Shown: positions 968 to 53,357, numbered from the stretch's first letter. The stretch is 64,000 nucleotides of DNA from Escherichia coli (GCF_030013595.1 NZ_CP122768.1), one strand, 5' to 3'. A program made the numbers and translations. The notes: generated from the letters alone by a model not told the origin.

Positions 968-1972
968 ATGTCCGGGTTTTATCATAAGCATTTCCTGAAA
1001 TTACTCGATTTCACGCCAGCTGAACTCAACAGCCTGCTGCAGTTAGCCGCGAAGCTGAAAGCCGATAAGAAAAGCGGTAAAGAAGAAGCCAAACTCACTG
1101 GTAAAAACATCGCGCTCATCTTCGAAAAAGACTCGACCCGTACCCGATGCTCTTTCGAAGTTGCCGCATATGACCAGGGTGCTCGCGTTACTTATCTCGG
1201 CCCAAGCGGCAGCCAAATTGGTCATAAAGAGTCGATTAAAGACACTGCCCGCGTGCTTGGTCGCATGTATGACGGTATTCAGTATCGCGGCTATGGTCAG
1301 GAGATTGTCGAAACACTGGCGGAATACGCTGGCGTGCCGGTATGGAACGGCCTGACCAATGAGTTCCACCCCACTCAGCTGCTGGCGGATCTTCTCACCA
1401 TGCAGGAGCATTTGCCCGGCAAAGCGTTCAACGAAATGACGCTGGTCTATGCAGGTGACGCACGTAACAACATGGGCAATTCGATGCTCGAAGCTGCAGC
1501 GCTTACCGGTCTGGATTTGCGTCTGGTCGCGCCACAGGCATGCTGGCCAGAAGCTGCGCTGGTTACGGAATGCCGCGCCCTGGCACAGCAAAATGGCGGG
1601 AATATTACGCTAACGGAAGATGTAGCCAAGGGAGTAGAAGGTGCTGACTTTATCTATACCGATGTATGGGTGTCGATGGGGGAAGCAAAAGAGAAATGGG
1701 CAGAACGGATTGCATTACTGCGTGATTATCAGGTGAACAGCAAGATGATGCAGTTGACCGGTAACCCGGAGGTCAAATTCCTCCACTGCCTGCCCGCGTT
1801 TCATGACGACCAGACGACGCTTGGTAAGAAAATGGCGGAAGAGTTTGGCCTACATGGCGGAATGGAAGTGACTGATGAGGTCTTCGAATCTGCTGCCAGC
1901 ATTGTTTTTGATCAGGCGGAAAACCGCATGCATACCATCAAAGCGGTGATGGTCGCGACGCTCAGTAAATAA
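968..1972 (+). CDS. argI: Ornithine carbamoyltransferase (334 aa)
   Basis: ORF track; STRTRCSFE carbamoyl-phosphate motif and HCLP motif; next to rraB. Confidence 0.95.
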
Positions 1973-5924: not shown

Positions 5925-6320
5925 ATGGTAGAAAGAACCGCTGTTTTCCCTGCTGGCCGACATTCACTGTATGCTGAGCATCGTTATTCTGCGGCTATTC
6001 GTTCCGGCGATTTGCTGTTTGTTTCCGGGCAAGTAGGAAGTCGAGAGGACGGAACACCAGAACCCGATTTTCAGCAACAAGTCAGACTGGCCTTTGATAA
6101 TTTGCATGCGACCCTGGCTGCTGCGGGATGCACTTTTGACGATATCATTGATGTTACGAGCTTTCATACCGATCCAGAAAAACAATTTGAAGACATCATG
6201 ACGGTCAAAAATGAAATATTTAGCGCCCCACCTTATCCAAACTGGACGGCGGTGGGTGTTACCTGGCTGGCAGGCTTTGATTTTGAAATTAAAGTGATAG
6301 CGCGCATCCCTGCGCAGTAA
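5925..6320 (+). CDS. yjgH: RidA/YjgF-family (RutC-like) protein (131 aa)
   Basis: ORF track; family fold recognisable from sequence. Confidence 0.85.
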   Translation: MVERTAVFPAGRHSLYAEHRYSAAIRSGDLLFVSGQVGSREDGTPEPDFQQQVRLAFDNLHATLAAAGCTFDDIIDVTSFHTDPEKQFEDIMTVKNEIFSAPPYPNWTAVGVTWLAGFDFEIKVIARIPAQ

Positions 6321-6600
6321 GCAATAGTGTTAGCCGTTCGTTTTCACACTCCGCCCTATAAGTCGGATGAATGGAATAAAATGCATATCTGATTGCGTGA
6401 AAGTGAAAAAGAAAAAAGCAGGAAATGTCTGCAATTATTGATACCGAACGACAGTTCTCCCCCAGAATCACATCAAATAAAAATGCATGTATTTTGACTT
6501 TTAATTCAAATAAACCGTTTGCGCTGACAAAATATTGCATCAAATGCTTGCACCGCTTCTGACGATGAGTATAATGCCGGACAATTTGCCGGGAGGATGT

Positions 6601-6735
6601 ATGGTTCAGTGTGTTCGACATTTTGTCTTACCGCGTCTGAAAAAAGACGCTGGCCTGCCGTTTTTCTTCCCGTTGATCACCCATTCCCAGCCCCTCAATC
6701 GAGGGGCTTTTTTTTGCCCAGGCGTCAGGAGATAA
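6601..6735 (+). CDS. pyrL: pyrBI operon leader peptide (44 aa)
   Basis: ATG at 6601, MVQCVRHFVLPRLKKDAGLPFFFPLITHSQPLNRGAFFCPGVRR, ends 4 nt before pyrB. Confidence 0.9.
   Translation: MVQCVRHFVLPRLKKDAGLPFFFPLITHSQPLNRGAFFCPGVRR
6691..6716 (+). terminator. pyrBI attenuator (rho-independent terminator inside pyrL)
   Basis: cccctc-aatc-gagggg hairpin followed by T8 run. Confidence 0.85.
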
Positions 6736-6738
6736 AAG

Positions 6739-7674
6739 ATGGCTAATCCGCTATATCAGAAACATATCATTTCCATAAACGACCTTAGTCGCGATGACCT
6801 TAATCTGGTGCTGGCGACAGCGGCGAAACTGAAAGCAAACCCGCAACCAGAGCTGTTGAAGCACAAAGTCATTGCCAGCTGTTTCTTCGAAGCCTCTACC
6901 CGTACCCGCCTCTCTTTCGAAACTTCCATGCACCGCCTGGGTGCCAGCGTGGTGGGCTTCTCCGACAGCGCCAATACATCACTGGGTAAAAAAGGCGAAA
7001 CGCTGGCCGATACCATTTCGGTTATCAGCACTTACGTCGATGCGATAGTGATGCGTCATCCGCAGGAAGGTGCGGCGCGCCTGGCCACCGAATTTTCTGG
7101 CAATGTACCGGTACTGAATGCCGGTGATGGCTCCAACCAACATCCGACGCAAACCTTGCTGGACTTATTCACCATTCAGGAAACCCAGGGGCGTCTGGAC
7201 AATCTCCACGTCGCAATGGTTGGTGACCTGAAATATGGCCGCACCGTTCACTCCCTGACTCAGGCGTTAGCGAAGTTCGACGGCAACCGTTTTTACTTCA
7301 TCGCGCCGGACGCGCTGGCAATGCCGCAATACATCCTTGATATGCTCGATGAAAAAGGGATCGCCTGGAGTCTGCACAGCTCTATTGAAGAAGTAATGGC
7401 GGAAGTAGACATCCTGTACATGACCCGCGTGCAAAAAGAGCGTCTGGACCCGTCCGAGTACGCCAACGTGAAAGCGCAGTTTGTTCTTCGCGCCAGCGAT
7501 CTTCACAACGCCAAAGCCAATATGAAAGTGCTGCATCCGCTGCCGCGTGTTGATGAGATTGCCACCGATGTTGATAAAACGCCACACGCCTGGTACTTCC
7601 AGCAGGCAGGCAACGGAATTTTCGCTCGCCAGGCGTTACTGGCACTGGTTCTGAATCGCGATCTGGTACTGTAA
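6739..7674 (+). CDS. pyrB: Aspartate carbamoyltransferase catalytic subunit (311 aa)
   Basis: ORF track; STRTR motif, HPxQ motif. Confidence 0.97.
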
Positions 7675-7686
7675 GGGGAAATAGAG

Positions 7687-8148
7687 ATGACACACGATAA
7701 TAAATTGCAGGTTGAAGCTATTAAACGCGGCACGGTAATTGACCATATCCCCGCCCAGATCGGTTTTAAACTATTGAGTCTGTTCAAGCTGACCGAAACG
7801 GATCAGCGGATCACCATTGGTCTGAACCTGCCTTCTGGCGAGATGGGCCGCAAAGATCTGATCAAAATCGAAAATACCTTTTTGAGTGAAGATCAGGTAG
7901 ATCAACTGGCATTGTATGCGCCGCAAGCCACGGTAAATCGTATCGACAACTATGAAGTGGTTGGTAAATCGCGCCCCAGTCTGCCGGAGCGCATCGACAA
8001 TGTGCTGGTCTGCCCGAACAGCAACTGTATCAGCCATGCCGAACCGGTTTCTTCCAGCTTTGCCGTGCGAAAACGCGCCAATGACATCGCGCTCAAATGC
8101 AAATACTGTGAAAAAGAGTTTTCCCATAATGTGGTGCTGGCCAATTAA
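7687..8148 (+). CDS. pyrI: Aspartate carbamoyltransferase regulatory subunit (153 aa)
   Basis: ORF track; C-terminal Zn-binding CxxxxC...CxxC. Confidence 0.97.
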
Positions 8149-8220
8149 TTGCGGTTGGTAATAAAAGTCTGGCTCCCTATAATGAGCCAGACTTTTTACC
8201 GCTGTAATAAAGGAGAAATC

Positions 8221-8607
8221 ATGAGCAAAACTATCGCGACGGAAAATGCACCGGCAGCTATCGGTCCTTACGTACAGGGCGTTGATCTGGGCAATATGAT
8301 CATCACCTCCGGTCAGATCCCGGTAAATCCGAAAACGGGCGAAGTACCGGCAGACGTCGCTGCACAGGCACGTCAGTCGCTGGATAACGTAAAAGCGATC
8401 GTCGAAGCCGCTGGTCTGAAAGTGGGCGACATCGTTAAAACCACTGTGTTTGTGAAAGATCTGAACGACTTCGCAACCGTAAACGCCACTTACGAAGCGT
8501 TCTTCACCGAGCACAATGCCACCTTCCCGGCACGTTCTTGCGTTGAAGTTGCCCGTCTGCCGAAAGACGTGAAGATTGAGATCGAAGCGATCGCTGTTCG
8601 TCGCTAA
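8221..8607 (+). CDS. ridA: Enamine/imine deaminase RidA (128 aa)
   Basis: ORF track 8149..8607 trimmed to MSKTIATENAPAAIGPYVQG start at 8221. Confidence 0.95.
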   Translation: MSKTIATENAPAAIGPYVQGVDLGNMIITSGQIPVNPKTGEVPADVAAQARQSLDNVKAIVEAAGLKVGDIVKTTVFVKDLNDFATVNATYEAFFTEHNATFPARSCVEVARLPKDVKIEIEAIAVRR

Positions 8608-8654
8608 TCTTGATGGAAATCCGGGCTATCATGCCCGGATTAAGTCTGATGACA

Positions 8655-8765
8655 AAAGCAAAATCGCCCGATGCGCTACGCTTATCAGGCCTATGTGATT
8701 CCTGCAATTTATTGAATTTGTAGGCCGGATTGGGCGTTTACGCCGCATCCGGCATGAACAAAGCT
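8655..8765. repeat. REP/BIME-type palindromic repeats
   Basis: gcccgatgcgctacgcttatcaggcctat and gccggattgggcgtttacgccgcatccggc REP-like units. Confidence 0.6.
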
Positions 8766-8812
8766 CACTTTGTCTGCAATATGAATCCGGGCCACTATGC
8801 CCAGTTTATTCT

Positions 8813-11509
8813 TTACTGCCAGCCGTAACGACGGCTATAGAACCCTTTCACCAACTGGGTTAACGTCATATACCCTGCCAGAATCGCAACCAGCCACGGG
8901 AAATAGCTTAACGGCAGCGCCTGCAGCTGCAGATAACTGGCCAGCGGTGAAAACGGCAATGCGATCCCGACAATCATCACGATCACGGTCATGATCATTA
9001 ACGGCCACGATGCACAGCTCTGAATAAACGGTACACGACGGGTGCGGATCATATGCACAATCAGCGTTTGCGACAGTAAGCCCACCACAAACCAGCCCGA
9101 CTGGAACAGCGTTTGCGTTTCCGGCGTGTTGGCATGGAATACCCACCACATCAGGCAAAACGTCAGAATATCGAAGATCGAGCTGATCGGTCCGAAGAAG
9201 ATCATAAAGCGCCCCAGATCCGCCGGATTCCAACGCTGCGGCTTTTGAATTTGCTCGTCGTCGACGTTATCAAACGGGATCGCCACCTGTGACACATCGT
9301 ACAGCAGGTTCTGAATAAGCAAGTGTAACGGCAACATCGGCAGGAAGGGCAAGAAAGCACTCGCCACCAGCACGCTGAACACATTACCGAAGTTAGAACT
9401 CGCCGTCATTTTGATGTATTTCAGCATGTTGGCGAAAGTGCGACGTCCCTCAATAACCCCCTCTTCCAGCACCATCAGGCTTTTTTCCAGCAGGATGATA
9501 TCAGCCGCTTCACGGGCAATATCTACCGCGCCGTCCACAGAAATGCCGATATCCGCAGCACGTAAGGCGGGCGCATCATTTATACCATCGCCCATAAAGC
9601 CAACCACATGCCCTTCGCGCTTCAGTAAGGTCACAATGCGTTCTTTATGCATCGGCGTCAGGCGAGCAAACAGCGTGGTGCGCTGTGCGAGATTTGCCAG
9701 TTCGTCGTCAGATAGCGTTTCAATATCACTACCAATGACCACCTCTCCCGCGTCCAGCCCCACTTCATGGCACACTTTCGCTGCAACTAACTCACTGTCG
9801 CCAGTAAGGATTTTTACGGTAATGCCACTCGCTTTTAATGCCTTCAGTGCCGGAGCAGTTGTCTCTTTTGGCGGATCAAGGAAAGCAATATATCCTTCGA
9901 GGATCAGGTCGGATTCATCCGCCCGCTGGTAATCTCCTTCACGCGCTGGCAGGTATTTCGTCGCCACCGCAACCACGCGCAGCCCCTGACGATTCAGCGT
10001 ATCAGTAACCCGCTTAATCTTACGCAGCATGATGTCATCGAGCGGCACAATCTCGCCATTGTGACGCACCTGCGAACACACATTGAGGATTTCCTGCAAT
10101 GCACCTTTGCAAACCAGCTGATGGTGCTCGGTATTTTCTGCCACTACCACCGACATCCGGCGACGCTCGAAATCAAACGGAATCTCATCAATTTTTTGCC
10201 AACGGCTGGCCAGCGAGCGCGCTGACTCTTCATCCGTACCTTCGAGCACCGCGGTATCAAGCAGGTTTTTAAGTCCGGTCTGGTAATGACTGTTCAACCA
10301 CGCGCTATGCAGCACGCGTTCGCTGGTTTTACCGGAGATATCGGTATGATTCTCCAGCACAATTTTATCCTGCGTCAGGGTGCCGGTTTTATCAGTGCAC
10401 AGAATATCCATTGCGCCAAAGTTCTGAATGGCATCCAGATGCTTGACGATCACTTTCTGTTTCGACAGCTTTACTGCGCCGCGCGCCAGCGTCGAGGTAA
10501 CAATCATCGGCAACATTTCTGGCGTTAAGCCTACCGCGACCGAAAGCGCAAACAGTGCCGCTTCCCACCAGTCACCTTTGGTGTAACCGTTGATAAGCAA
10601 CACCACCGGAGCCATCACCAGCATAAAGCGAATCAGCAGCATACTGACGCGGCTGATCCCTTGCTGAAAGGCATTCGGCTCGCTTTCCTGCTCACTAACA
10701 CGCCCCGCCAGTTGACCAAACCAGGTGTTGGCTCCTGTAGCAATCACCATTGCTTGTGCCGTGCCGCTCACCACGGTGGTGCCCATAAAACACAGGGTGT
10801 CGCACTCCAGCGGATTGCTGTGCTCCGGCTGGCGAGTAGTAGCGGCTTTTTCCACGGGCAGAGACTCACCGGTTAACGACGCCTGAGCGACGAACAGATC
10901 CCGCGCCTGCAAGATACGTAAATCTGCCGGGATCATATCCCCCGCCGCCAGTTTTATAATATCGCCGGGCACCAGCTGGTCGATCGGGATCTCCAGCCAG
11001 CCATTTTCGCCTTTGTCGTTAATTACGCGCAGCACCGTCGCGGTATTGCTGACCATCGCTTTCAGGGCATCTGCCGCTTTAGTGGAACGTGCTTCCTGAA
11101 TAAAGTTCAGCAACGTAGAAATAGCGACCATTAGCGCGATAACACCCGCGGCAAATAAATCTTCCGTGGCGTAAGAAATAGCGCCGAGAATGGTGAGTAA
11201 AATATTAAAGGGGTTGCGATAGCAGACCCATAAATGAACCCACCACGGCGACGGTTGTTGTGCGGGTAATTTATTTTCACCATGTTGTTCGCGGGCAGAT
11301 TCCACTTCCGCCTGATTTAATCCTTCCGGATGGGTGTCGAACGTTTTCCACAATTCTTCTTCGGGCATCACCGCCATTTTCAGGCAATGCGCACTTAAGG
11401 AGGGCGGGACCGCCGTATTCACTGTCTGCTGCGCGCCAGGCAATGGATCGCGATGAACCAGACGGGAAGGTAAATGGCGAATGAACCGGGTAAAAATTTC
11501 TTTAAACAT
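8813..11509 (-). CDS. mgtA: Mg2+-importing P-type ATPase (898 aa)
   Basis: ORF track; DKTGTLT phosphorylation motif, TGDGxNDAP motif. Confidence 0.95.
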   Translation of the reverse strand: MFKEIFTRFIRHLPSRLVHRDPLPGAQQTVNTAVPPSLSAHCLKMAVMPEEELWKTFDTHPEGLNQAEVESAREQHGENKLPAQQPSPWWVHLWVCYRNPFNILLTILGAISYATEDLFAAGVIALMVAISTLLNFIQEARSTKAADALKAMVSNTATVLRVINDKGENGWLEIPIDQLVPGDIIKLAAGDMIPADLRILQARDLFVAQASLTGESLPVEKAATTRQPEHSNPLECDTLCFMGTTVVSGTAQAMVIATGANTWFGQLAGRVSEQESEPNAFQQGISRVSMLLIRFMLVMAPVVLLINGYTKGDWWEAALFALSVAVGLTPEMLPMIVTSTLARGAVKLSKQKVIVKHLDAIQNFGAMDILCTDKTGTLTQDKIVLENHTDISGKTSERVLHSAWLNSHYQTGLKNLLDTAVLEGTDEESARSLASRWQKIDEIPFDFERRRMSVVVAENTEHHQLVCKGALQEILNVCSQVRHNGEIVPLDDIMLRKIKRVTDTLNRQGLRVVAVATKYLPAREGDYQRADESDLILEGYIAFLDPPKETTAPALKALKASGITVKILTGDSELVAAKVCHEVGLDAGEVVIGSDIETLSDDELANLAQRTTLFARLTPMHKERIVTLLKREGHVVGFMGDGINDAPALRAADIGISVDGAVDIAREAADIILLEKSLMVLEEGVIEGRRTFANMLKYIKMTASSNFGNVFSVLVASAFLPFLPMLPLHLLIQNLLYDVSQVAIPFDNVDDEQIQKPQRWNPADLGRFMIFFGPISSIFDILTFCLMWWVFHANTPETQTLFQSGWFVVGLLSQTLIVHMIRTRRVPFIQSCASWPLMIMTVIVMIVGIALPFSPLASYLQLQALPLSYFPWLVAILAGYMTLTQLVKGFYSRRYGWQ

Positions 11510-11775
11510 AAGGAGTCCCTCCGCACTGTCTGAAACAGTACAGAAATGTCTTCAGGCGTGGCGAAGCCTTACCTGAAGGTAATAAAGCTGAGCAGGGACG
11601 TTAAAACGTCACGGCCTTACGCATCCGGTAACGCCGTGAAAAGACGGGCTTACCGGAAAAGTTTTAATCTCCGTCGAGGGAGAGGCGTGGGATCAGGTTC
11701 CATATAACCTCCGGTAAGTGAAAAAAGCGCCGCAAATAATAAGGAGAATCCAATAATATTCGTAGCATCTATGGC
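11510..11775 (-). promoter_or_regulatory. mgtA 5' leader (Mg2+/proline-sensing leader RNA) containing mgtL
   Basis: Long untranslated leader between PhoP-type promoter and mgtA start, with proline-rich leader ORF. Confidence 0.7.
11650..11703 (-). CDS. mgtL: mgtA leader peptide (17 aa, [17 protein letters not shown])
   Basis: ATG at 11703 and TAA at 11650 on minus strand. Confidence 0.85.
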
Positions 11776-19261: not shown

Positions 19262-19552
19262 TCACTCATCCAGCCGTTTAGTCGCGTCTTCATAAACGGC
19301 TGAGTTCTCTCTCTTACCAATAGCTATCACCAACACGAGCAACTCTTTATCGTTAACCTGATAAACCAGGCGATATCCCTGTGTGCGCAGCTTAATTTTG
19401 TAGCAGTCCGGTAAATCCCGCAGTTTAGCCGATGGATTGCGCGGCCTTTTCAGCACATCCTCAAGCTTTTTTTTAAATTGTTCCCGGACTGTCACGCCCA
19501 GTTTTTGCCACTCTTTCAGCGCCCGCGGATCAAACGCCAGCTCATAGTTCAT
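19262..19552 (-). CDS. RelE/ParE-superfamily toxin (96 aa), RelE-like
   Basis: ORF track 19262..19630 trimmed to MNYELAFD start at 19552; strong similarity to E. coli RelE from memory (DCYKIKLR..GYRLVYQV, KRE near C-terminus); stop codon abuts nrdG stop. Confidence 0.8.
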   Translation of the reverse strand: MNYELAFDPRALKEWQKLGVTVREQFKKKLEDVLKRPRNPSAKLRDLPDCYKIKLRTQGYRLVYQVNDKELLVLVIAIGKRENSAVYEDATKRLDE

Positions 19553-19784
19553 CCAGTCGGACCTTAATGGCCTCTTGTGGGTTGGCCAGTCGTTCCCTGA
19601 CAGTGCGTAACAAGGCTTCTTCACTATCACTGACAGTGAGCGTTTTTACCGGCATTCGTCCATTTTCCGCAACGTACTGAAACAGCAGTCGCCCTGCTTC
19701 AGTAGGCGTGATATTTAATTTTTCCAGCACCGCATAAGCCTCATTTTTCAGTTTGTCATCCAGGCGGACGTTAAGTGTGGCCAT
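19542..19784 (-). CDS. RelB/DinJ-family antitoxin (80 aa)
   Basis: ORF track; ribbon-helix-helix N-terminus resembling RelB; 11-nt overlap with toxin start; ggagg RBS. Confidence 0.8.
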   Translation of the reverse strand: MATLNVRLDDKLKNEAYAVLEKLNITPTEAGRLLFQYVAENGRMPVKTLTVSDSEEALLRTVRERLANPQEAIKVRLDEL

Positions 19785-30732: not shown

Positions 30733-31083
30733 TTATTCCACCACCGCCTGCAAACGTAATAACGCCTCTTCCACCACCTCACCCGCAGCCAGACCAATAC
30801 GCTTTGCCAGCCGGGCGCGTAGATCCATCATCCGCACCTGATTCACCAGCACCACGCCGTGCACATCGCCTTCTTCGCAATGTAAAGGAACGCTAAATCC
30901 GACATAACGGGCAAAATTTCCGCCCTGCGTAATGGGGGCCACCAGCGTCATTCCCAGTTGATTAAAGGCTTGAACGGAGAGCACAAGCGCAGGTCGACCA
31001 GCACCTTGCTGTTCATGGCCGCTTGCTGGATCAAAGCCAACCAGCACAATGTCTCCCCGTTCAAATTCACTTTTCTTTACCAT
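30733..31083 (-). CDS. chpB: MazF-family endoribonuclease toxin ChpB (116 aa)
   Basis: ORF track; recognised sequence; overlaps chpS end. Confidence 0.9.
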   Translation of the reverse strand: MVKKSEFERGDIVLVGFDPASGHEQQGAGRPALVLSVQAFNQLGMTLVAPITQGGNFARYVGFSVPLHCEEGDVHGVVLVNQVRMMDLRARLAKRIGLAAGEVVEEALLRLQAVVE

Positions 31084-31328
31084 ATTTCGTCACCCGCAGG
31101 GGTGGATTTACCCCAGACATCCTGCTCGCTAAGTTCCGTGGCGTTCATGTCACACTGTGCCAGCAGTTCATCAAGCGAGTAGCGCCTGGAGATGGGTGTC
31201 AGAATCAGTTGATTGTTGCTCACTTGCGCCTCCACGCTCTGCCCCGGCCGTAAGTTAAGTTCTTTCATCACAACATTAGGAATGACCATACCTGAACTAT
31301 TCCCCCATCTTTTTATGGTAATACGCAT
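31077..31328 (-). CDS. chpS: MazE-family antitoxin ChpS (83 aa)
   Basis: ORF track 31077..31334 trimmed to MRITIKRWGNSSG. Confidence 0.9.
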   Translation of the reverse strand: MRITIKRWGNSSGMVIPNVVMKELNLRPGQSVEAQVSNNQLILTPISRRYSLDELLAQCDMNATELSEQDVWGKSTPAGDEIW

Positions 31329-40495: not shown

Positions 40496-40867
40496 ATGAC
40501 CCTACGCAAGATTCTGGCACTCACCTGCCTGCTGTTGCCGATGATGGCTTCCGCACATCAGTTCGAAACCGGTCAGCGAGTGCCGCCGATTGGCATTACC
40601 GATCGGGGCGAGTTGGTGCTTGATAAAGATCAGTTTAGCTACAAAACCTGGAACAGCGCGCAGTTAGTGGGAAAAGTGCGGGTACTGCAACATATTGCTG
40701 GTCGCACCTCTGCAAAAGAGAAAAACGCGACGCTGATTGAAGCGATTAAATCAGCGAAGTTACCGCACGATCGTTACCAGACCACCACCATTGTTAACAC
40801 CGACGACGCGATTCCGGGTTCAGGGATGTTTGTGCGCAGCAGTCTGGAGAGTAATAAAAAGCGGTAA
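40496..40867 (+). pseudogene. ytfJ: ytfJ truncated by IS1 (123 codons remain; stop codon supplied by IS1 terminal repeat)
   Basis: Signal-peptide-bearing N-terminus recognised; ORF terminates at TAA inside the IS1 inverted repeat at 40865-40867. Confidence 0.75.
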
Positions 40868-40877
40868 TGACTCCAAC

Positions 40878-41381
40878 TTACTGATAGTGTTTTATGTTCA
40901 GATAATGCCCGATGACCTTGTCATGCAGCTCCACCGATTTTGAGAACGACAGTGACTTCCGTCCCAGCCTTGCCAGATGTTGTCTCAGATTCAGGTTATG
41001 CCGCTCAATGCGCTGAGTATAACGCTTGCTGATAACGTGCAGCTTTCCCTTCAGGCGTGATTCATACAGCGGCCAGCCATCCGTCATCCATACCACGACC
41101 TCAAAGGCCGACAGCAGGCTCAGAAGACGCTCCAGTGTGGCCAGAGTGCGTTCACCGAAGACGTGCGCCACAACCGTCCTCCGCATCCTGTCATACGCGT
41201 AAAACAGCCAGCGCTGACGTGATTTAGCACCGACGTAGCCCCACTGTTCGTCCATTTCAGCGCAGACAATCACATCACTGCCCGGTTGTATGCGCGAGGT
41301 TACCGACTGCGGCCTGAGTTTTTTAAGTGGCGGAAAATCGTGTTGAGGCCAACGCCAATAATGCGTGCACTGGCGCGACAT
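40878..41381 (-). CDS. insB: IS1 InsB (167 aa; normally expressed as InsAB' fusion by -1 frameshift)
   Basis: ORF track; overlaps insA in the -1 frame. Confidence 0.95.
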
Positions 41382-41575
41382 CCGACGCCATTCATGGCCA
41401 TATCAATGATTTTCTGGTGCGTACCGGGCTGAGAGGCGGCGTAAGTGAACTGTAGTTGCCATGTTTTACGGCAGTGAGAGCAGAGATAGCGCTGATGTCC
41501 GGCGGTGCTTTTGCCGTTACGCACCACCCCGTCAGTAGCTGAACAGGAGGGACAGCTGATAGAAACAGAAGCCAC
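41300..41575 (-). CDS. insA: IS1 InsA (91 aa)
   Basis: ORF track; [23 protein letters not shown]... Zn-finger/HTH protein. Confidence 0.95.
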
Positions 41576-41789
41576 TGGAGCACCTCAAAAACACCATCAT
41601 ACACTAAATCAGTAAGTTGGCAGCATCACCATAGAAGTAAACTATCAAAAAACGCTCATTATTAAAATATAACTTATTAGCAATTGAATTTTTGCACTTT
41701 AAATACAATCTCTTTTTATTTATAACTTTTTAGGTTGGGAGAAATCAGGATGGCAGAATCAGGAAATACACTGTTTCTGCCATCTGAAT

Positions 41790-50556: not shown

Positions 50557-51195
50557 ATGCCCGGGCGCTTTGAACTAAAACCAACCCTGGAGAAAGTCTG
50601 GCACGCGCCGGACAATTTTCGCTTCATGGACCCGCTGCCGCCGATGCATCGTCGGGGGATCATTATTGCCGCCATTGTATTGGTAGTCGGATTTCTGCTT
50701 CCATCTGATGATACGCCCAACGCGCCGGTGGTGACGCGTGAAGCGCAGTTAGATATTCAGTCGCAATCACAACCACCGACAGAAGAACAGCTGCGGGCGC
50801 AATTAGTCACGCCACAAAATGATCCTGATCAGGTGGCTCCGGTCGCTCCAGAACCAATACAGGAAGGCCAGCCAGAAGAGCAGCCGCAACCCCCCCAAAC
50901 GCAACCATTCCAGCCAGATAGCGGAATTGATAATCAATGGCGCTCTTACCGTGTCGAACCCGGTAAAACGATGGCACAGCTGTTCCGCGACCACGGGCTG
51001 CCCGCTACCGATGTCTATGCAATGGCGCAGGTAGAAGGCGCGGGTAAGCCGCTGAGTAATTTGCAAAACGGGCAGATGGTGAAAATCCGCCAGAACGCCA
51101 GCGGCGTGGTGACGGGCTTAACCATTGATACGGGGAATAATCAACAGGTCCTGTTTACCCGCCAGCCGGATGGCAGTTTTATTCGTGCGCGGTAG
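50557..51195 (+). CDS. ytfB: OapA/LysM-domain cell-division-associated protein (212 aa)
   Basis: ORF track 50521..51195 trimmed to MPGRFELKP; Pro/Gln-rich linker. Confidence 0.85.
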
Positions 51196-51295
51196 ATGAA
51201 GGGTCAACCAGAAGCCAGCTAAGGAGCGTCTCTTTGATGACCTTACGTCTGGCTTCCAGTGCCTGGGGGGAAACCATACTGATGTGTTGACATCC

Positions 51296-51317
51296 TCCAC
51301 GCCCTGAAGGACGTGGA
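51296..51317. repeat. Subterminal hairpin of the IS element (tnpB-distal end; shared core GCCCTGAAGGACG)
   Basis: tccac-gccctgaagga-cgtgga; 13-nt core identical to the hairpin at 52998-53017. Confidence 0.6.
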
Positions 51318-51329
51318 TCCCTGCTACGT

Positions 51330-52538
51330 TCAGGCTGTCGCCTGAATCATTTCGGTGGGTTCCTGCTTCAACGAGCGGCCTGACTGCACCATCTCTCCAC
51401 AGGCAAGAACGGCGTGCCCCGCCGCTAAAATGTTACGAGCGCCATTTACATCGGCGTTCGCTGTATATCCACATACCTGGCATCTGAATTTAATTTGTGA
51501 CAGGCGATTTTCTTTCGCTGTATGACCACAGCACGCGCAACGCTGGCTTGTGTACGCTGGCGGAACAGCAAGCACCTGACCGCCACGCCAGAGCTGCTTG
51601 TACTCAAGCTGGCGGCGCATTTCATACCAGCCCTGATCCAGTATCGAACGGTTTAAACCTGATTTTGCCCGGACATTGCGCCGCGGCTGGCTGACCGTAC
51701 CCGCTGCTGACTTTGACATGTTGCTGACCTTCAAATCCTCAATGACTATCATTGCGTGGTTTTTGCTGACGGTCGTTGTGACTTTGTGAAGGTAGTCCCT
51801 GCGGATATTTGCGATACGGGAATGCAGTCGCTGTATTTTGCGTTTCTGCTTCTGCCAGTTATTGCTGAATTTGACCTTGCGGCTTAACTGTCGCTGAAGT
51901 CTCGCCAGCTTCTTCTGTTTTTTCTGAAAACTGTTTACAGGCTCAAAGACTGTGCCATCTGACAGCGTGGCGAGTTTAACCACGCCAGCATCCAGCCCGA
52001 CCATTGATGCTGAAGGATGAACCGGAGTTGATACTTCACTTTCTGTCTGAATACTGATGTACCACTTACCGCAGGACTGGCTGACCGTGACATTTTTCAC
52101 AACACCCGTGACCTGACGGCTATTCCGGTAGCGCATCCAGCCCAGTTTCGGCAGAAAAATACGGCTGTTTTCCTGATAGAGCTTAACGCCCTACGGGTAG
52201 CGGAATGCATCATTCTGTCCCCGCTTTTTGAATCGGGGAAAAGCAGCCCGCTTCTGGAAGAAGTTTTTGTAAGCCCGCTCAAGGTCTTTCAGTGACTGTT
52301 GCAATGGCTGTGACGGGGCATCTTTAAGCCATTGCGTTTCAGTGGCATTTTTCCACTCAACCAGCCAGGAAGCCATTTTCCCGTAAGGGATGTATTTATT
52401 ACCGGCCTCATGATTCTCATTCTGAAGCGCCAGAGCACGATTGAAAACGAAACGACATGCGCCTGCGAAGCGCCTCATTTCACGCTCCTGTTGACCACCG
52501 GGTCTTAACTGGAATTTAAATGCCTGTCGTCGTTTCAC
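51330..52538 (-). pseudogene. tnpB: IS605-family TnpB (RuvC-like RNA-guided nuclease family), interrupted by one in-frame TAG
   Basis: ORFs 52191..52538 and 51330..52136 share one frame; my hand translation across the gap gives ...DAFRYP-stop-GVKLYQENSRIFLPKLGWMRYR...; C-terminal Zn ribbon CACCGH...CQVCG; RuvC-like D/E/D residues. Confidence 0.8.
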
Positions 52539-52608
52539 AGGTCAAATGATACTTTGGTCTGTGAAAAAAGAAACCTATATCCGGCGTGGAAGGTATTGTG
52601 TTTTCCTG

Positions 52609-53020
52609 ATGCATGTTCACCTGGTCTTTGTCCCAAATACCGACGCCAGATTTTTGACCATGACGCGACAGAAAAACTACGCACTTACTTTTCAAATGTA
52701 TGTGCTGATTTTGAAGCTGAACTGGTTGAAATGGATGGCGAACCAGATCACGTCCATTTGTTAATTAAATATCCTCCCAAACTGGCGATATCCAGTCTGG
52801 TAAACAGCCTCAAAGGCGTATCGGGTAGGTTACTGCGACGAGATCGACCAGATATTGCAGTCAGGTATTACTACAAAGGCGTTTTGTGGAGTCCTGGCTA
52901 TTTTGCCAGTAGCTGTGGAGGTGCGCCAATATCCGCCATCCGTCAATCCATTGAACAACAGCAAACACCTGGTCAGGTGGAAAACCGCGCCGTATATCCC
53001 CGCCCTGAAGGACGGGGTTT
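52609..53020 (+). pseudogene. tnpA: IS200-type Y1 (HuH) transposase TnpA, -1 frameshifted near N-terminus
   Basis: MHVHLVFVP in one frame, then KYRRQIF...DHVHLLI... (HuH motif) in another; switch within gtcccaaatac homopolymer context; no in-frame stop until 53159, so C-terminus undefined. Confidence 0.7.
52998..53017. repeat. Subterminal hairpin of the IS element (tnpA-distal end)
   Basis: cccc-gccctgaagga-cgggg; same loop and core as 51296-51317. Confidence 0.6.
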
Positions 53021-53033
53021 TACGGCACACCGG

Positions 53034-53357
53034 ATAAACCAGGCCAAGCGTATGCTGGTTGATCAAATAATATCCCCCAAGCGCAGCAATATTAATATAC
53101 ACCTGCAATGGGTCGATATCTGGCTTAAAAATATTGTGTTTCTTCCCTTCATCCAATAAGGATTCCATTAACTGCAAGTGCGCATGATTAATTTCTAAGA
53201 GACGCTGTGATTTTACATAATGCACACCTTTACTTTGGTTTTCACTATGCACAATTTTTAAAAACCAAGGATTAGCAATATAATATATCCTAGGTAAAAT
53301 CGATGATTTTTTCAATGGCTTTTTGTGGCTGGTTAACCTGCTGATTAACAAACGCAC
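53034..53357 (-). pseudogene. ytfA: Truncated ORF, N-terminal about 108 codons, ytfA-like; C-terminus replaced by IS sequence
   Basis: 175-codon ORF 52830..53357 whose last third is antisense to tnpA; identity with K-12 ytfA is from positional memory only. Confidence 0.45.

Follow-up and report, generated by a model that had tools for sequence, protein, structure and literature searches.

The locus upstream of pyrB in this Escherichia coli strain raises a simple question: does the short leader ahead of the gene retain the classical UTP-sensitive transcription attenuator, and how would such a leader set the expression of the genes behind it? We analysed it within a window, by which we mean the whole stretch of 64,000 nucleotides. 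Our analysis makes it almost certain that the pyrL leader tunes aspartate transcarbamoylase synthesis to UTP without a repressor protein. Every element of this architecture is present, in order, identical to K-12 and deeply conserved. The elements are as follows, in window coordinates.

6548–6553, + strand: −35-like hexamer TTGCAC of the pyrBI promoter, placed by its spacing (16 nt to the −10).
6570–6575, + strand: −10 hexamer TATAAT of the pyrBI promoter, read from the sequence, 7 nt upstream of AATTTG.
6583–6588, + strand: initially transcribed region AATTTG with the start at A6583, from K-12 identity and the literature motif.
6592–6596, + strand: Shine–Dalgarno sequence GGAGG of pyrL, read from the sequence, 4 nt ahead of the ATG at 6601.
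6601–6735, + strand: pyrL, the pyr operon leader peptide ORF, including its TAA stop (ORF call, PF08052, NF007587, RefSeq).
6631–6653, + strand: upstream leader hairpin with core GCGTCT/AGACGC at 6633–6650 and loop GAAAAA (folding, covariation).
6661–6675, + strand: U/C-rich tract TTTTTCTTCCCGTTG, codons 21–25 (PFFFPL), read from the sequence; the UTP-sensitive pause region of the literature.
6689–6708, + strand: attenuator (intrinsic terminator) hairpin AGCCCCTC-AATC-GAGGGGCT (folding, terminator scan, conservation).
6708–6715, + strand: T8 run of the attenuator (sequence, terminator scan), 23 nt from its end to the pyrB ATG.
6727–6731, + strand: Shine–Dalgarno sequence AGGAG of pyrB, read from the sequence, within the final pyrL codons.
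6739–7674, + strand: pyrB, aspartate carbamoyltransferase catalytic chain, the regulated gene (ORF, Pfam OTCace_N and OTCace, RefSeq).
7687–8148, + strand: pyrI, aspartate carbamoyltransferase regulatory chain, the second gene of the operon (ORF, Pfam PyrI and PyrI_C).

The leader ORF was read directly from the sequence. It opens with ATG, runs for 44 sense codons in total and closes with TAA (translation MVQCVRHFVLPRLKKDAGLPFFFPLITHSQPLNRGAFFCPGVRR), and two curated families cover it from end to end. PF08052 (PyrBI_leader) matches residues 1–44 of 44 with E = 3.1e-34 (117 bits; cut-off 25), and the NCBIfam equivalog NF007587 ('pyr operon leader peptide') matches the full length with E = 2.9e-35 (120 bits; cut-off 61). 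On near-identical genomes, RefSeq calls pyrL at exactly the same interval with pyrB–pyrI downstream, and the product carries one accession, WP_001296693.1, in K-12, 2012C-4502 and HCP5S3_I2. These matches and the RefSeq call confirm the 44-codon leader ORF at 6601–6735 that an earlier note on this DNA had proposed. The ORF lies directly upstream of pyrB–pyrI, with all three on the + strand. One figure in the earlier note needed correction: pyrL was said to end 4 nt before pyrB, whereas only 3 nt (AAG) lie between its stop, which closes at 6735, and the pyrB ATG at 6739; pyrB thus begins at the fourth base past the stop. The CAGGAGA that holds the pyrB Shine–Dalgarno sequence is kept among Enterobacteriaceae leaders. 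At the other end of the ORF, an extra ATG at 6597 directly abuts the pyrL Shine–Dalgarno sequence; it is not kept in other genera, and the other Enterobacteriaceae read GGGAGGAAGCATGG, with only the second ATG there.

Several other reading frames were considered and set aside. An antisense ORF of 110 aa (6289–6621), an antisense ORF of 30 aa (6606–6698) and a +1-frame ORF of 49 aa (6597–6746) each had no Pfam match at E ≤ 1 and no RefSeq annotation, and were taken as mechanical ORFs. An in-frame TTG at 6535 would give a 66-aa product; it precedes the start of transcription.

The pyrBI promoter was placed by the literature motif and K-12 identity. A consensus promoter scan made no call at this site, because only 3 of the 6 positions of the −35 match. 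The documented role of AATTTG, the initially transcribed region of pyrBI, is in UTP-sensitive reiterative transcription, by which AAUUUn transcripts are released at high UTP (PMC7039003, PMC6524683). A crystal structure shows AAUU nascent RNA at the pyrBI start (PMC7039003), and therefore the start is at the first A, 6583. Productive initiation at pyrBI is given as ∼7-fold lower at high UTP in PMC6524683, which cites Liu, Heath and Turnbough 1994.

The sole promoter-proximal difference from K-12 is A6552 (G in K-12), the fifth base of the −35-like hexamer (TTGCAC vs TTGCGC). The allele of the window over 6530–6600 is found at 100% identity in 2100 of 5392 E. coli genomes, O157:H7 included. Depending on the allele, position 6552 is G, A or T, the last in ABU 83972-type sequences (TTGATC), in which the TTG is retained. 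The position thus varies among strains, and A6552 is one of its common alleles. It is a remote possibility that this allele shifts basal pyrBI expression between E. coli lineages. The TATAAT hexamer is the same in K-12 and in strains with a more divergent allele.

That divergent allele deserves a description of its own. In about 600 E. coli genomes all the DNA ahead of the pyrBI −10 is of a different version (∼65% identical), and an arginine-repressor-like gene and a YfcC-family gene stand upstream in place of yjgH; the −10, start region and entire leader of these genomes are unchanged. It is seen in ABU 83972 (L127:1115–1245) and SCU-112 (L128:1145–1275), where it corresponds to window positions 6480–6566.

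Downstream of the promoter, RNA folding finds the terminator hairpin on which the attenuator reading depends. The stem has 8 bp, pairing 6689–6696 with 6701–6708 around the loop AATC at 6697–6700. The cccctc/gagggg motif named in the earlier note is the core of this stem, and flanking pairs extend the core to the full 8 bp. Folded alone, the hairpin has a free energy of −15.9 kcal/mol compared with a shuffle mean of −5.65 (z = −4.8), with 0 of 200 shuffles as good, and it is still present when the entire 162-nt leader is folded to its minimum free energy. A terminator scan of 6200–8800 returned this hairpin with its T8 run as the strongest terminator-like site. The hairpin spans pyrL codons 30–36, i.e. 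it lies wholly inside the ORF, so the claim that the leader ORF overlaps the cccctc/gagggg hairpin followed by T8 stands with the coordinates given above. We also considered a bidirectional terminator. The minus strand folds equally well, but there is no T-run after the hairpin on that strand, and the idea was rejected.

The window is chromosomal DNA of E. coli, and we compared the region with other genomes of the species. In the alignment with K-12 MG1655, in which the attenuator was originally characterised, window positions 6553–6760, from the last −35 base through the start of pyrB, are 100% identical, which settles in favour of the attenuator the comparison with the K-12 leader that the earlier note had put forward as a check. 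The 11 differences found are all confined to intergenic DNA further upstream that is not transcribed: A6552 and 10 substitutions in 6321–6551. The leader (6576–6745) is ≥99% identical in 5416 of 5424 complete E. coli genomes, and the 440 nt from 6321 to 6760 are present in 5424 of 5426. Among the matches listed for 6321–6760, 30 of 30 records annotate pyrL and pyrB there. The closest genome, HCP5S3_I2, is 99.98% identical over the whole window, and strain 2012C-4502 is 100% identical over 6321–6760 but only ∼98% over the whole window. In eight of the 5424 genomes the leader is <99% identical, and one of these (H67) has a 1-nt length difference. Three of the ∼5400 matches to the pyrL–pyrB region sit on plasmid-labelled records.

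Beyond E. coli, homologous loci were collected independently of the leader: a degenerate DNA pattern for the N-terminus of PyrB was run against a single genome from each species. This gave 120 Enterobacterales loci (121 sequences with the window) from Escherichia, Salmonella, Citrobacter, Klebsiella, Enterobacter, Kluyvera, Pantoea, Erwinia, Serratia, Yersinia, Photorhabdus, Xenorhabdus and other genera. The G+C-rich hairpin core GCCCCT(C/T)...(G/A)AGGGGC and a T-run lie upstream of pyrB in 121/121. Since the attenuator hairpin and T-run are found there in all 120 other species, the match in the window is not a chance one. The T-run is T8 in 86 of the 121 and T9 in 31, and the attenuator lies 20–187 nt from the pyrB ATG. 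Taken together, the K-12 identity, the 5416 of 5424 E. coli genomes and the hairpins found in all the Enterobacterales species sampled bear out the earlier claim that the pyrL leader and attenuator are intact and their architecture conserved.

The stem is mostly conserved in sequence and, where it is altered, changes in the partner compensate. At the loop-proximal pair, C-G becomes T-A in many genera, or A-T. Further compensated pairs are T-A to C-G and C-G to T-A in one locus each (L044 and L042, respectively) and G-C to A-T in Atlantibacter. These changes were counted with each sequence anchored on its own T-run. A MAFFT alignment of 110 leaders (A2) analysed with RNAalifold recovered only 4 terminator pairs, because loops of 3 or 4 nt shift the register of the 5′ arm, and A2 was used for the upstream hairpin only.

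In some genomes of the Yersinia group (L006, L009 and L121) the attenuator is 170–187 nt from pyrB, not 22–23 nt. The extra DNA resembles an ERIC/IRU-type repeat (ATATACCCTAAATAATTCGAGTTGCAGGAAGGCGGCAA...), as judged by eye only.

A hairpin followed by a T-run has the generic shape of an intrinsic terminator, and short ORFs are common by themselves. The structure could accordingly be the terminator of the upstream gene yjgH, overlapped by a 44-codon ORF by chance and free of any regulation. Yet yjgH ends at 6320, 369 nt upstream, and the TATAAT promoter lies between. The hairpin is tied to pyrB in every one of the sequences compared, and this linkage holds in the E. coli strains that have the arginine-repressor-like and YfcC-family genes upstream. 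The ORF belongs to curated pyrL families at E ∼1e-34, and an ORF with a Shine–Dalgarno sequence and ATG reaches the hairpin in 112/121. Given the promoter that intervenes, the matches to curated families and a linkage to pyrB that does not depend on the gene upstream, we exclude a yjgH terminator, to which we assign hardly any probability, and retain the pyrBI attenuator.

The reach of the leader ORF is itself informative. ORFs that reach the hairpin in so many sequences are what would be predicted by a mechanism that needs a ribosome on its 5′ arm; the other nine of the 121 are mostly truncated loci or a degenerating symbiont genome. Two architectures occur: in 73 sequences the stop codon falls within the hairpin, giving 33–47 codons, and in 39 the ORF reads through the hairpin and T-run, giving 44–71 codons. 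E. coli and Salmonella/Citrobacter differ in this respect by one loop base, AATC being read as AAT CGA (44 codons) and AATT as AAT TGA (33 codons). The leader peptides are unrelated between families, for example MVQCVRH... here, MQQRSAQF... in Pantoea, MKNRLYF... in Yersinia and MKDCAVKA... in Xenorhabdus. As far as the sequences tell, what is conserved is the travel of the ribosome to the hairpin and not the peptide that is made.

These data also bear on whether PyrL could be a small protein whose sequence matters, either as a trans-acting regulator or as a TnaC-like cis-acting arrest peptide. In favour of this, its N-terminal part, MVQCVRH..PRLK..AGLPFFFPL, is well conserved within Enterobacteriaceae, and the peptide is invariant within E. 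coli; RNA-level constraints can, however, explain conservation within the family. Outside Enterobacteriaceae the peptide is unrelated and its length ranges from 33 to 71 aa, and what persists there is the attenuator hairpin with its T-run, the U/C-rich tract and an ORF that extends into the hairpin. In addition, the loop base (CGA in E. coli, TGA in Salmonella/Citrobacter) sets 44 vs 33 aa, and the last 11 residues of PyrL are therefore dispensable. A function of the peptide itself is very improbable, and a leader that serves to carry a ribosome to the attenuator is the reading that we prefer.

Two further elements lie between the pyrL start and the attenuator. The first, the upstream hairpin, folds at −11.6 kcal/mol (z = −4.7) and is supported by covariation among the 110 Enterobacterales leaders of A2. 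In that alignment 76% of cells are paired compared with ≤45% with slid partners, two-sided changes occur in 63 cells compared with ≤24, and the covariation score is 0.22 compared with ≤0.14, a value reached by 0 of 500 shuffles. The stem sequences differ by lineage, e.g. GCGTCT/AGACGC, CGCCTG/CAGGCG, CTGCC/GGCAG and CGTCGTCT/AGACGACG. This hairpin is classically drawn as a pause hairpin. In vitro work from 2022 found that the particular pyrL pause which it observed gained no stability from NusA and was not restored by compensatory mutations in the hairpin (PMC9291695). Owing to this independence of NusA and of the hairpin, the pause-hairpin step of the textbook model is less secure than its remaining steps. 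A small discrepancy thus exists in a textbook system: the upstream hairpin covaries, yet the pyrL pause studied in PMC9291695 is reported to be independent of NusA or a hairpin.

The second element is the U/C-rich tract. A T/C-rich tract is found at the equivalent site in nearly all of 111 distinct leaders. UTP-sensitive pausing of RNA polymerase at pyrL is attributed to Donahue and Turnbough 1994, as cited in PMC9291695. In the minimum-free-energy fold, the Shine–Dalgarno region at 6590–6597 (CGGGAGGA) pairs with the pause tract at 6665–6672 (UCUUCCCG), and the leader ahead of the attenuator has an overall z of −2.6. This predicted pairing may be mere purine/pyrimidine complementarity. It is conceivable, though we think it unlikely, that the role of the upstream hairpin differs from textbook pausing and that, with the predicted pairing between the Shine–Dalgarno region and the tract, it times or limits loading of the leader ribosome, and that separately A6552 shifts expression.

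The same extra pairing could be taken as a sign of another kind of control, in which ribosome position alone does not govern the attenuator; an RNA-binding protein would do so, or else a switch to an alternative RNA fold like that of a riboswitch, with Bacillus PyrR and trp/his-type antiterminators as precedents. Such mechanisms are used by many other pyrimidine and amino-acid operons. An Rfam scan of 6000–9000 (E ≤ 1) gave no family above threshold there: no PyrR match, no leader family and no curated RNA family covering the pyrL leader. The predicted folds hold no alternative hairpin that takes up 6689–6696 in competition with the 6689–6708 stem, and the leader has no regulatory codon run, the only codon repeat being the Phe codons (FFF) that come from the U-tract. 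The accounts in PMC5021804 and PMC4824070 credit read-through to the ribosome itself. We consider control by a protein or riboswitch-like fold extremely unlikely, and control by ribosome position stays the preferred explanation. In the same Rfam scan, the hits that overlapped the leader, Chlorobi-1 (24.5 bits; gathering 50) and Hrs1 (22 vs 56.4), were on the opposite strand and far under threshold; we attributed them to the shape of a hairpin with an A/U-run and rejected them.

For the way in which the elements would work together, the published account has the best support; its UTP dependence, pausing and role of the ribosome are inferred from published experiments on the identical K-12 sequence. 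The leader would hold two UTP sensors in series, with RNA polymerase itself acting as the sensor in both. Transcription would begin at A6583, downstream of the TATAAT at 6570–6575. At the first sensor, initiation, high UTP would let the polymerase slip on the T3 of AATTTG, so that AAUUUn is made and released. Polymerases that escape the promoter would transcribe pyrL, where a ribosome would start at 6601, and would then meet the second sensor in the leader. At high UTP, the polymerase would pass the U-rich tract at 6661–6675 without delay and outrun the pyrL ribosome; the hairpin at 6689–6708 would form and transcription would terminate in the U8, 23 nt before pyrB. At low UTP, the polymerase would pause at sites of U addition and the ribosome would catch up. 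The ribosome would then cover the 5′ arm of the attenuator while the 3′ arm is made, no hairpin would form, and transcription would read through into pyrB–pyrI. Suppression of termination at the pyrBI attenuator by the ribosome goes back to Roland et al. 1988, as cited or reused in PMC5021804 and PMC4824070. The sequence contains nothing that would argue against reading the region as the pyrBI attenuator.

Set beside this scheme, the reading in the earlier note is not wrong but leaves out parts of one regulatory unit, namely the promoter with its −10, the UTP sensor at AATTTG, the upstream hairpin and the U-rich tract where pausing occurs in the literature. The value of the result is that of quality control, in that regulation of pyrBI in this strain is standard, and a classical attenuator was recognisable from raw sequence by a first-stage reader. 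The comparative by-products are modest, namely a hairpin and T-run universal upstream of pyrB in the 120 species, two ORF architectures and a covarying upstream hairpin. They are consistent with the published model and mostly implicit there already.

The rest of the window holds several features that we record here. About 5 kb downstream, the annotation of a near-identical genome places an mgtL leader peptide at ∼11650–11703 (− strand) with mgtA at 8813–11509 (− strand); mgtL is a second, unrelated leader-peptide attenuator within the window. In the gap between ridA and mgtA, 8687–8759 gave sub-threshold Rfam matches to naRNA4 (35 bits; gathering 59.5) and ES036 (30.5 vs 37.6) and is probably a REP-type repeat. 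About 5 kb upstream of pyrB, an ornithine carbamoyltransferase gene at ∼968–1972 (+ strand), a pyrB paralogue, carries the RefSeq label argF; we take its position to correspond to the argI locus on the K-12 gene map. Around 40862–41631, the window is without 472 nt present in HCP5S3_I2, and the missing stretch lies inside a pseudogene (a frameshifted 'hypothetical protein') that has ytfJ and cysQ as neighbours. At ∼51180–53330, a decayed IS200/IS605 element interrupts a TetR/AcrR regulator gene; the insQ/tnpB of the element has an internal stop, and its tnpA is frameshifted and truncated. Two type II toxin–antitoxin pairs are also found, a RelE/RelB-like pair at ∼19262–19784 (− strand) between nrdG and cybC, and chpSB at ∼30733–31328 (− strand) after ppa. 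Both stretches are without an aligned counterpart in 2012C-4502, and neither pair is in its annotation.

How does this leader compare with known systems? In Bacillus, pyr attenuation relies on the PyrR protein, which binds an anti-antiterminator RNA. The likeness is pyrimidine-responsive premature termination upstream of pyr genes; the difference is that the Bacillus system is protein-dependent, whereas the pyrL leader is without a match to a PyrR-binding site. The leaders trpL, hisL, thrL, leuL and pheL share with pyrL a short translated leader, a terminator before the structural genes and transcription–translation coupling. In these leaders, charged tRNA is sensed at stretches of regulatory codons, and the RNA alternates between an antiterminator and a terminator hairpin. 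In pyrL, in contrast, the signal would be UTP sensed by RNA polymerase, no antiterminator is predicted and the ribosome would block the terminator directly. In the rph–pyrE attenuator of E. coli, UTP-sensitive transcription–translation coupling decides whether a terminator forms before a pyrimidine gene. As a matter of general knowledge, it has the same working principle as the pyrBI attenuator, but there the end of the rph gene serves as the translated 'leader', with no dedicated leader ORF; this locus is outside the window.

The pyrL leaders of Salmonella and Citrobacter share with the present one the layout, the core GCCCCTC/GAGGGGC, the T8–T9 run and the first ∼25 codons. They differ in the loop AATT, which places a TGA stop within the hairpin after 33 codons while the E. 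coli ORF reads through to 44, and in a distance to pyrB of 22 nt vs 23 nt. In the K-12 pyrBI operon studied by the Turnbough laboratory, the −10, AATTTG, Shine–Dalgarno sequence, 44-codon ORF, both hairpins, tract, T8 and 23-nt distance are identical to those described here. The differences are A6552 instead of G and the 10 intergenic substitutions, none of them in an element known to matter. By its sequence, the leader analysed here is the K-12 pyrBI leader itself, not just a relative of it, and is in that sense already known.
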